Origin: Escherichia coli
GTDB taxonomy: Bacteria > Pseudomonadota > Gammaproteobacteria > Enterobacterales > Enterobacteriaceae
Length of the DNA stretch: 64,000 nucleotides
Strand: one strand, 5' to 3'
Assembly: GCF_003790525.1 (NCBI RefSeq)
Contig: NZ_CP033635.1
Under the pieces are notes generated by a model. The model saw only the letters and a list, made by a program, of their open reading frames with translations, ran no database searches and was not told where the DNA came from. This document shows positions 34,546-35,456 of the stretch, one piece after another; position 1 is the stretch's first letter; the number at the start of each line of letters is the position of its first letter. The position numbers were made by a program, and so were the translations under genes.

Positions 34546-34583
34546 AAATACGGCAAATTACAGTAAAATACTTTGCCGTATTT
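34546..34583 (-). terminator. hairpin downstream of the cytochrome b562-like gene
   Basis: 12-bp perfect inverted repeat AAATACGGCAAA / TTTGCCGTATTT with 14-nt loop, 35 bp beyond the stop codon. Confidence 0.5.
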
Positions 34584-34617
34584 AGAAATAAAATTAAATT
34601 TTTCTATAGAATATTAT

Positions 34618-35007
34618 TTATCTGAATTTTCGGTGGCCTTCCAGTTTTATATTATTCATTTTATCCAGAGCATCACGTAGTGACTCTATATTCCCCGACT
34701 CAACCTTCTCTTTTGCAAGATTGATTTCATTTTGTAGTTTCTTCAACTCATTCTTATAACTTTCCACTGCGACTTTATCGTTGCTGTTTATTTTTTCAGG
34801 AAGAGTATTCATGGAAGCATTTACAGCTTTGTCCATCATATCAAGAGCATTTAATAGAGATTTTTTATCACCAGAGGATTGTAGAGTGCTCATATTTCTT
34901 GCAAGGCTCTGCATATTTTTATCCAGTCCGGAAGCCAAAGATATATGACTGGTAGATAAACACATTACAAGTATAGAACTCACAATAAAGAATTTTTGTT
35001 TCTTCAT
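34618..35007 (-). CDS. cytochrome b562-family four-helix-bundle protein (divergent)
   Basis: Signal peptide, DKNMQSL near mature N-terminus and C-terminal GHRKFR mirror the Met/His haem ligand positions of CybC; strongly AT-rich. Confidence 0.65.
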   Translation of the reverse strand: MKKQKFFIVSSILVMCLSTSHISLASGLDKNMQSLARNMSTLQSSGDKKSLLNALDMMDKAVNASMNTLPEKINSNDKVAVESYKNELKKLQNEINLAKEKVESGNIESLRDALDKMNNIKLEGHRKFR

Positions 35008-35456
35008 TAATTTACTCCTATTCGAAAGTGATTATCGTCATGGCAATTTAACTTTATTATTCTATCTTTTATGGATGTACATCTCCTATATGGGTATACA
35101 CAAGAAAATGTGATGCATTTCTAAAAACTATTCTACTTTATTCGGTATTGCTGAATGATTCACCATTAAGAAAATAGATATAACAGTTCTTTATTTCTTT
35201 TATTTAACATGGTTGTATTAAATATTCAACAGGTTTTCTAATACCAGTTGGGCTTTGTTGAAAAAATCTGATTTAGGGTAAGAGCCCCGTAGCTAGTTGT
35301 GCTTTCAGGCAATACGCACGCTCTCAGGCATACCTACTTTCGTGATTTTATTCAGCGCTAGCGCCATGACCTGCGTATTACCGTGAAGGAGATCGGTGAG
35401 TAACATCGATGGAGATCGGTTCGTGTCACTTTCACAGAACCGTTTTTAAATTACCT

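Follow-up and report, generated by a model that had tools for sequence, protein, structure and literature searches.

A horizontally acquired cytochrome b562 gene on a chromosomal island of Escherichia coli and its katP-linked relatives

To our knowledge, cytochrome b562, though studied biophysically for decades, still has no settled physiological role. E. coli CybC (PDB 256B), encoded at the core pmbA-nrdG locus, carries an N-terminal signal peptide and has a mature length of 106 residues. The product of katP is a periplasmic catalase-peroxidase. On a pO157-type plasmid, a 92.7-kb replicon with katP, espP, and ecf genes, katP is followed on the same strand, after 47 bp, by the b562 gene L7018, whose product is ~50% identical to the protein studied here. 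The L7018 protein has been detected in O157:H7 by proteomics, where it was 6.3-fold more abundant in vivo, in the piglet gut (PMC3686733). In Y. pestis, katY, cybC, and cybB form one transcript by RT-PCR (PMC2231364). In the part of the literature that was searched, no report of electron transfer from b562 to a catalase-peroxidase was found.

The gene described here lies in a 64-kb stretch (64,000 nucleotides) of E. coli DNA, hereafter the window, which an earlier note made from the sequence alone had described as holding a divergent cytochrome b562-like gene, an interpretation that is supported by the present analysis. The window protein and CybC belong to the same Pfam family and share a four-helix bundle, predicted in the case of the window protein (TM ~0.90, rmsd ~1.4 Å), with equivalents of the haem ligands, and the putative mature window protein, at 104 residues, is close in length to mature CybC, with a signal-peptide-like segment at the position of the CybC signal peptide. 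However, whereas cybC occupies a core locus, the window copy lies on an accessory island, has a GC content of 34%, and encodes a basic protein, with both copies present in the same genomes. L7018, a member of the sister lineage, likewise encodes 129 aa, shares the ligands, and is carried by a mobile element, on which it lies ~7 kb from ecf-type deacetylase and GT4 genes of the same kind as the neighbours of the window gene. L7018 is preceded by katP and by an intercistronic hairpin of high GC content; at the window gene katP is absent, the AT-rich leader is the gene's own, and the hairpin downstream is a different one. The Y. pestis operon, in which b562 comes after a periplasmic catalase-peroxidase, has the gene order of the katP-linked relatives. 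It differs in its chromosomal location and in the presence of cybB, the gene of the membrane cytochrome b561; the window locus contains neither a peroxidase nor a b561 gene.

Family, predicted fold, and haem ligands

The coding sequence and the elements of its product are as follows.

34618..35007, minus strand: coding sequence of a 129-aa cytochrome b562 family protein (390 nt; stop codon TAA at 34620-34618; RefSeq WP_001354052.1), from the open reading frame list, PF07361, and RefSeq annotation in 27 genomes
34933..35007, minus strand: residues 1-25, a Sec-type signal-peptide-like segment (MKKQKFFIVSSILVMCLSTSHISLA, followed by S), from the hydrophobicity profile, low pLDDT, and alignment with the CybC signal peptide
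34912..34914, minus strand: codon of Met32, which aligns with Met7 of mature CybC, an axial haem ligand; 52/53 family members have Met here
34633..34635, minus strand: codon of His125, which aligns with His102, the other axial haem ligand of mature CybC; the sole invariant column (53/53)

The 129-aa product is as quoted in the earlier note, residues 29-35 being DKNMQSL and residues 124-129 GHRKFR, and the coding sequence is as strongly AT-rich as was claimed (34.1% GC, compared with ~48% for most of the window). An HMM search against the b562 family gives a significant, full-length match to Pfam PF07361 (Cytochrom_B562; E = 7.7e-16, 59.0 bits), with residues 28-129 aligned to positions 2-102 of the 102-position model. 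Cytochrome b562 is also the sole credible NCBIfam match, and a sequence search of solved structures returns cytochrome b562 chains as the best matches, aligned end to end. RefSeq already carries the identical protein under the name "cytochrome b562", and the novelty of the gene is therefore low.

The AlphaFold2 model, computed from a 53-member family alignment, predicts an up-down-up-down four-helix bundle (helices 24-44, 48-66, 78-103, and 107-128) with pLDDT values above 90 in the mature part. Comparison of this model with the PDB by Foldseek yields top matches that are all cytochrome b562 (256b, 4er9, and others) or b562 fusion constructs, with a target-normalised TM of ~0.90 and an rmsd of 1.2-1.5 Å over 104 columns. 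The similarity extends to the ligands, with both the Met and His columns, picked out beforehand from the two motifs, occupied in the alignment by Met32 and His125. The other pocket columns examined (L28, L35, L55, M58, P70, Y84, L91, F128, and R129) hold family-majority residues, and the column of CybC Tyr101 holds Gly, which is also the family majority (24/53). In family match, predicted fold, and ligand columns, the window protein thus has the features of the b562 family that a sequence can show. The mature protein has a pI of 9.2, compared with 5.4 for CybC, in a family that ranges from 4.75 to 10.05. A basic pI was considered as a clade signature of a different redox partner and rejected, with only the window allele and the P0012 allele described below being basic.

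The N-terminus resembles a signal peptide, as previously proposed, with an n-region KKQK, a hydrophobic core FFIVSSILVMC (Kyte-Doolittle 2.69), a candidate SLA/S cleavage site, and an alignment with the CybC signal peptide; residues 1-23 have pLDDT values below 50 and are modelled as unstructured. A putative cut after Ala25 would place Met32 at mature residue 7, the position of the ligand in CybC.

An accessory copy on an integrase-bounded island

The window gene is an accessory, horizontally acquired second b562 copy, in agreement with the earlier note, which took it for a horizontally acquired paralogue, divergent from the chromosomal cybC. The window protein is 24% identical to CybC and scores 70.9 bits against the NCBIfam cybC equivalog NF011632, below the curated cutoff of 130. 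The canonical cybC is found at the pmbA-nrdG locus in 5425/5426 complete E. coli genomes, whereas the window gene (at least 99% identity) occurs in 27 of the 5426, strain SFE8 (NZ_CP051219.1) being one island bearer, chromosomal in all of them, at an integrase-bounded island at ynjA. The island starts with a tyrosine integrase right after ynjA and contains many IS elements, ICE remnants, iha, PerC, ProQ/FinO, PhoX, and iron ABC transporter remnants, a cargo that resembles that of virulence plasmids.

The gene had been described as intact in contrast to its neighbours. This holds with respect to the adjacent phosphoethanolamine-transferase, GT4, and polysaccharide-deacetylase genes, which are pseudogenes in the RefSeq annotation of the identical locus, and with respect to a YebF fragment, but not with respect to ISEc12, in which istA and istB are intact. 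The YebF-family gene (33768-34120, plus strand) is frameshifted and convergent with the b562 gene, and only a C-terminal 57-aa piece is matched by the YebF models, at scores that stay below their cutoffs (E = 7.5e-14 and 1.1e-11). In RefSeq the gene is labelled an intact "YebF family protein". The frameshifted deacetylase and GT4 genes (31394-32971, minus strand; pseudogenes at ~30669-32919) show 81-85% DNA identity to genes of the pO157-type plasmid, apparently of the ecf operon, that lie ~7 kb from katP and L7018, and the island thus holds a decayed copy of a pO157-like segment.

Upstream of the gene the following features were identified.

35008..35098, minus strand: conserved 5' leader, ~77% identical to a clade of plasmid-borne relatives, from the blastn block 35098..34547 and alignment
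35024..35042, minus strand: Fur-box-like 19-mer CATGACGATAATCACTTTC, with 14/19 matches in a consensus scan, overlapping the -10-like element; a lead only
35099..35247, minus strand: AT-rich DNA, the last remnant of the native upstream region, covered among complete E. coli genomes only by the 27 that bear the island
35248..35360, no strand assigned: terminal fragment of an IS903-like (IS5-family) element, matching IS903B ends at 86-87% identity in over 1600 genomes
35383..37942 (approximate bounds), minus strand: ISEc12 (IS21 family; istA and istB intact), from RefSeq annotation, with terminal inverted repeats at 35386-35438 and 37885-37937

The IS903-like end cuts the native upstream DNA ~240 bp before the b562 ATG. 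The insertions are nested over 35248-38474, with ISEc12 inside the IS903-like element and pieces of the latter at ~35248-35360 and ~37900-38474. ISEc12 and the b562 gene have the same orientation, making read-through transcription conceivable. The leader contains a Shine-Dalgarno GGAG (35018-35015) and a -10-like GATAAT (35036-35031), with GGAG conserved in the plasmid clade and the -10-like box present there as TATAAT. A scan for sigma-70 consensus promoters on the strand of the gene upstream of the ATG called none. An AT-rich promoter region had been claimed here; the AT-richness is evident, however of the promoter only the conserved -10-like box is seen.

Four loci in the 64-kb window score at least 14/19 in the Fur-box scan, and the plasmid clade scores 12/19 at the position equivalent to the leader match. 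The best match in the window is GATAATGAGAATGATTTGC at 54374-54392 (15/19). It runs into the 5' end annotated for iha (minus strand, 52312-54399), which suggests that the annotated iha start is possibly too far upstream. A remnant of a LysR regulator upstream of the b562 gene, as in the plasmid clade, was looked for and discarded, with only a weak, unrelated match at 24.9 kb.

Downstream of the gene lies a single structured element.

34545..34584, minus strand: terminator-like hairpin with a 13-bp stem, a 14-nt loop, and A/U-rich flanks, 34 nt past the stop codon, from folding and conservation

The perfect 12-nt stem reported earlier is present (arms 34546-34557 and 34572-34583) and extends to 13 pairs when 34545/34584 is counted. 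The hairpin folds at -16.5 kcal/mol alone and, in its 106-nt context, has a z of -4.07, with 0/200 shuffles folding as well. Copies on APEC plasmids and in Klebsiella retain it, with a compensatory replacement of A:U by U:A at the top of the stem, which supports a structural role, most simply in transcription termination or 3'-end protection. With its 14-nt loop and the lack of a clean T-run, it escapes a simple scan for consensus terminators. The "own terminator" of the earlier note is thus retained as a conserved, terminator-like hairpin on its folding energy and conservation, and given up as a canonical intrinsic terminator.

The hairpin is also the downstream edge of the DNA common to the window and the plasmid clade, with homology confined to 35098..34547, a block of 552 bp comprising the 91-bp leader, the coding sequence, and the hairpin, and stopping at 34547. 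The decaying island bears the b562 gene as this compact leader-coding sequence-hairpin module. The end of homology at this point prompted an attC integron-cassette reading, which was rejected, with no RYYYAAC inverse core visible by eye after the stop codon; a GTTAAAC further downstream, found in the same inspection, is not part of the conserved block, and chance alone would be expected to produce it. The sole Rfam match in or near the locus is a sub-threshold snoRNA (E = 0.38), and a known RNA family was likewise rejected.

Relatives, selection, and linkage to katP

In an exhaustive profile search of 1.84 billion representative proteins, the close clade comprises just two full-length clusters at 50% identity and is separated by score from the remainder of the family (at least 122 bits, compared with at most 53 bits). 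The nearest non-identical relatives form the plasmid clade (~71% aa and 77-80% nt identity), found on large IncF plasmids of E. coli, a good number of them from avian-pathogenic (APEC) or avian isolates (for example WP_000595317.1), where a LysR gene and an allantoin-type catabolic cluster adjoin b562. The window gene and the APEC plasmid gene share the 552-bp module and the lack of katP linkage, but the latter is plasmid-borne with a mature pI of ~6, whereas the former is island-borne with the basic pI given above. In these searches the window lineage occurs only on mobile elements, those of E. coli and of its close relatives.

Comparison of the window and plasmid alleles over the mature part (Nei-Gojobori) gives a dN/dS of 0.22 at a dS of 0.62, evidence of purifying selection over the history of this katP-unlinked clade. 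The 27 island copies are at least 99% identical and are uninformative on selection at the present location. Exchange and decay within the clade are also seen. P0012 (L004, 7890-8449) is a recombinant allele, with a leader and signal part identical to those of the plasmid clade and a mature part almost identical to that of the window allele; its dS of 0.03 in the mature part, compared with 0.82 in the signal part, shows intragenic recombination between the plasmid and island lineages. P0005 (130 aa, E. coli) is a variant of the window allele in which a C-terminal frameshift (ending LEGTENSDK) removes the His ligand, so that some copies are evidently decaying.

Besides L7018, b562 genes of the clusters P0055, P0065, and P0063 lie 38, 53, and 28 bp, respectively, downstream of genes for KatP-type peroxidases of 730-738 aa, and these b562 clusters are mutually divergent. 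The four linked peroxidases are 73-87% identical to one another, and all have signal-peptide-like N-termini. In a sample of ten clusters with readable context, four are thus katP-linked, with the window, APEC, and P0046 clades, P0064 and P0068 on conjugative elements, and the pmbA-locus genes being unlinked. The arrangement typical of the katP- and katY-linked modules, in which b562 lies directly 3' of a signal-peptide-bearing peroxidase gene, is found in the sister lineages and is absent at the window gene. In a neighbour-joining tree the window clade has 99% bootstrap support and is sister to L7018 and P0055 with 97%. The two branches that come next are katP-linked as well, with a weak 36% support at that node.

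A tblastn search of the whole 64-kb window with KatP found nothing below E = 2.8. A katP remnant upstream of the window gene was accordingly rejected, and the upstream neighbour is the IS903-like fragment.

In three of the four katP-b562 pairs (L002, 6553-6598; L005, 7963-8000; L011, 4948-5000), a GC-rich perfect hairpin separates the stop codon of the peroxidase gene from the Shine-Dalgarno of b562, with arms GAGGGAGG/CCTCCCTC, ACAGGGGGAG/CTCCCCCTGT, and TTGGGGAGG/CCTCCCCAA that differ in sequence and agree in position and structure; the fourth pair (L020) is without such a hairpin. Outside the clade studied, P0064 (L014, 5001-5384) lies in the leading region of an F-like plasmid, between a lytic transglycosylase gene and psiA/psiB, and the b562-family gene P0068 (L017, 4001-4390) adjoins a TraG_N gene, and b562 is thus recurrent plasmid cargo. 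P0088 (792 aa), a representative protein of metagenomic or genomic origin, was considered as a KatG-b562 fusion and rejected: it has no peroxidase domain, and its two tandem C-terminal b562-like domains, with the Met and His columns kept, follow an unrelated, repeat-rich N-terminal region that looks membrane-associated.

Proposed function and alternatives

We consider it probable that the window gene encodes an accessory, Sec-exported, ~11.7-kDa periplasmic b562 that carries single electrons, that its lineage ancestrally supported KatP, and that it is now uncoupled from that partner. The preprotein would be exported by Sec and cleaved after Ala25, and the mature four-helix bundle would most likely bind one non-covalent haem b through Met32 and His125, acting as a small soluble one-electron carrier of the periplasm. 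Its ancestral task was probably to support the removal of peroxide from the periplasm as a redox partner, in an arrangement comparable to the Y. pestis operon: reduced b562 would have passed electrons to oxidised intermediates of a co-expressed KatP-type peroxidase, as suggested by the sister relationship of the window lineage to b562 genes 28-53 bp downstream of katP. With no katP in the window, and with the APEC and P0046 relatives not beside katP either, the role of partner to a peroxidase would be exercised in trans or have been replaced, the window clade being maintained on its own and, we infer, expressed in the island.

The features that set the window protein apart from CybC could instead indicate a bundle of the b562 fold that no longer binds haem and has an unrelated periplasmic function. 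The 24% identity, the Gly at the position of Tyr101, and the pI of 9.2 compared with 5.4 all point in this direction, however both axial ligands and nearly all pocket columns hold family-majority residues, Gly is itself the commonest residue at the Tyr101 column, and the pI lies within the family range, so that we regard loss of haem binding as highly improbable. Bis-axial Met/His ligation is typically a trait of redox cytochromes and not of transfer proteins, and its family-wide presence also argues against a periplasmic haem buffer or chaperone, controlled by Fur under iron limitation, that would hold or hand over haem b in place of carrying electrons. This second proposal draws on the Fur-box-like 19-mer over the -10-like element, a score reached at few loci in the window, and on the iha gene and iron ABC transporter remnants of the same island. 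Furthermore, Y. pestis CybC is listed with Fur and shifts in abundance on iron starvation (PMC2835676), and two papers in the literature searched pair cytochrome b562 with haem uptake, apparently with b562 serving as a haem probe. The Fur match is nevertheless weak, lies in AT-rich DNA, falls to 12/19 in the plasmid clade, and has no counterpart in the katP-linked relatives, and a haem buffer is in our judgement unlikely.

The state of the island raises the question of whether the gene is a silent, hitch-hiking relic, unexpressed and heading for pseudogene status, that is intact only through the recent acquisition of the island. Most flanking genes are pseudogenes or fragments, nested IS elements truncate an upstream region in which no consensus promoter is called, the near-identical island copies say nothing of selection in place, and a frameshifted variant exists in P0005. 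In contrast, the dN/dS of ~0.22 across the clade reflects long-term purifying selection on the unlinked gene, the chromosomal and plasmid clades have kept the Shine-Dalgarno, the -10-like box, and the hairpin in common, and the orientation shared with ISEc12 would permit transcription by read-through. A relic of this kind therefore appears improbable, and an uncoupled electron carrier that once supported KatP remains our preferred reading.

Taken alone, the window gene is of little weight, being a correctly annotated accessory member of a textbook family. The recurrent adjacency of b562 and KatP, in four independent clusters and the Yersinia operon, suggests a concrete partner for b562, and such a partnership, if true, would explain the b562 paralogues on virulence plasmids and islands. 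A wider model, which we put forward tentatively and regard as rather doubtful, is that of a conserved two-gene module for periplasmic peroxide defence on enterobacterial mobile elements, in which a dedicated b562 feeds a KatP-type peroxidase, coupling it to the respiratory chain so that it is more than a plain catalase. The window clade would be an emancipated copy, now under selection on IncF plasmids and islands of E. coli, that serves a peroxidase or another haem enzyme of the periplasm in trans or has acquired a different function, for instance that of a haem buffer under Fur control.

A PhoX-family gene recurs in the surroundings of b562. In the P0046 sub-clade, where b562 sits between a PhoX gene and an autotransporter gene, the PhoX-family gene is 1.2 kb upstream (L006-L009, 3821-5800). 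The chromosomal cybC of O157:H7 has been reported to be PhoB-dependent and induced by phosphate starvation (PMC3978041). In the window, a PhoX-family phosphatase gene (42542-44521, minus strand) lies upstream of b562 in the same orientation, with ~7.5 kb of IS and other insertions between them.
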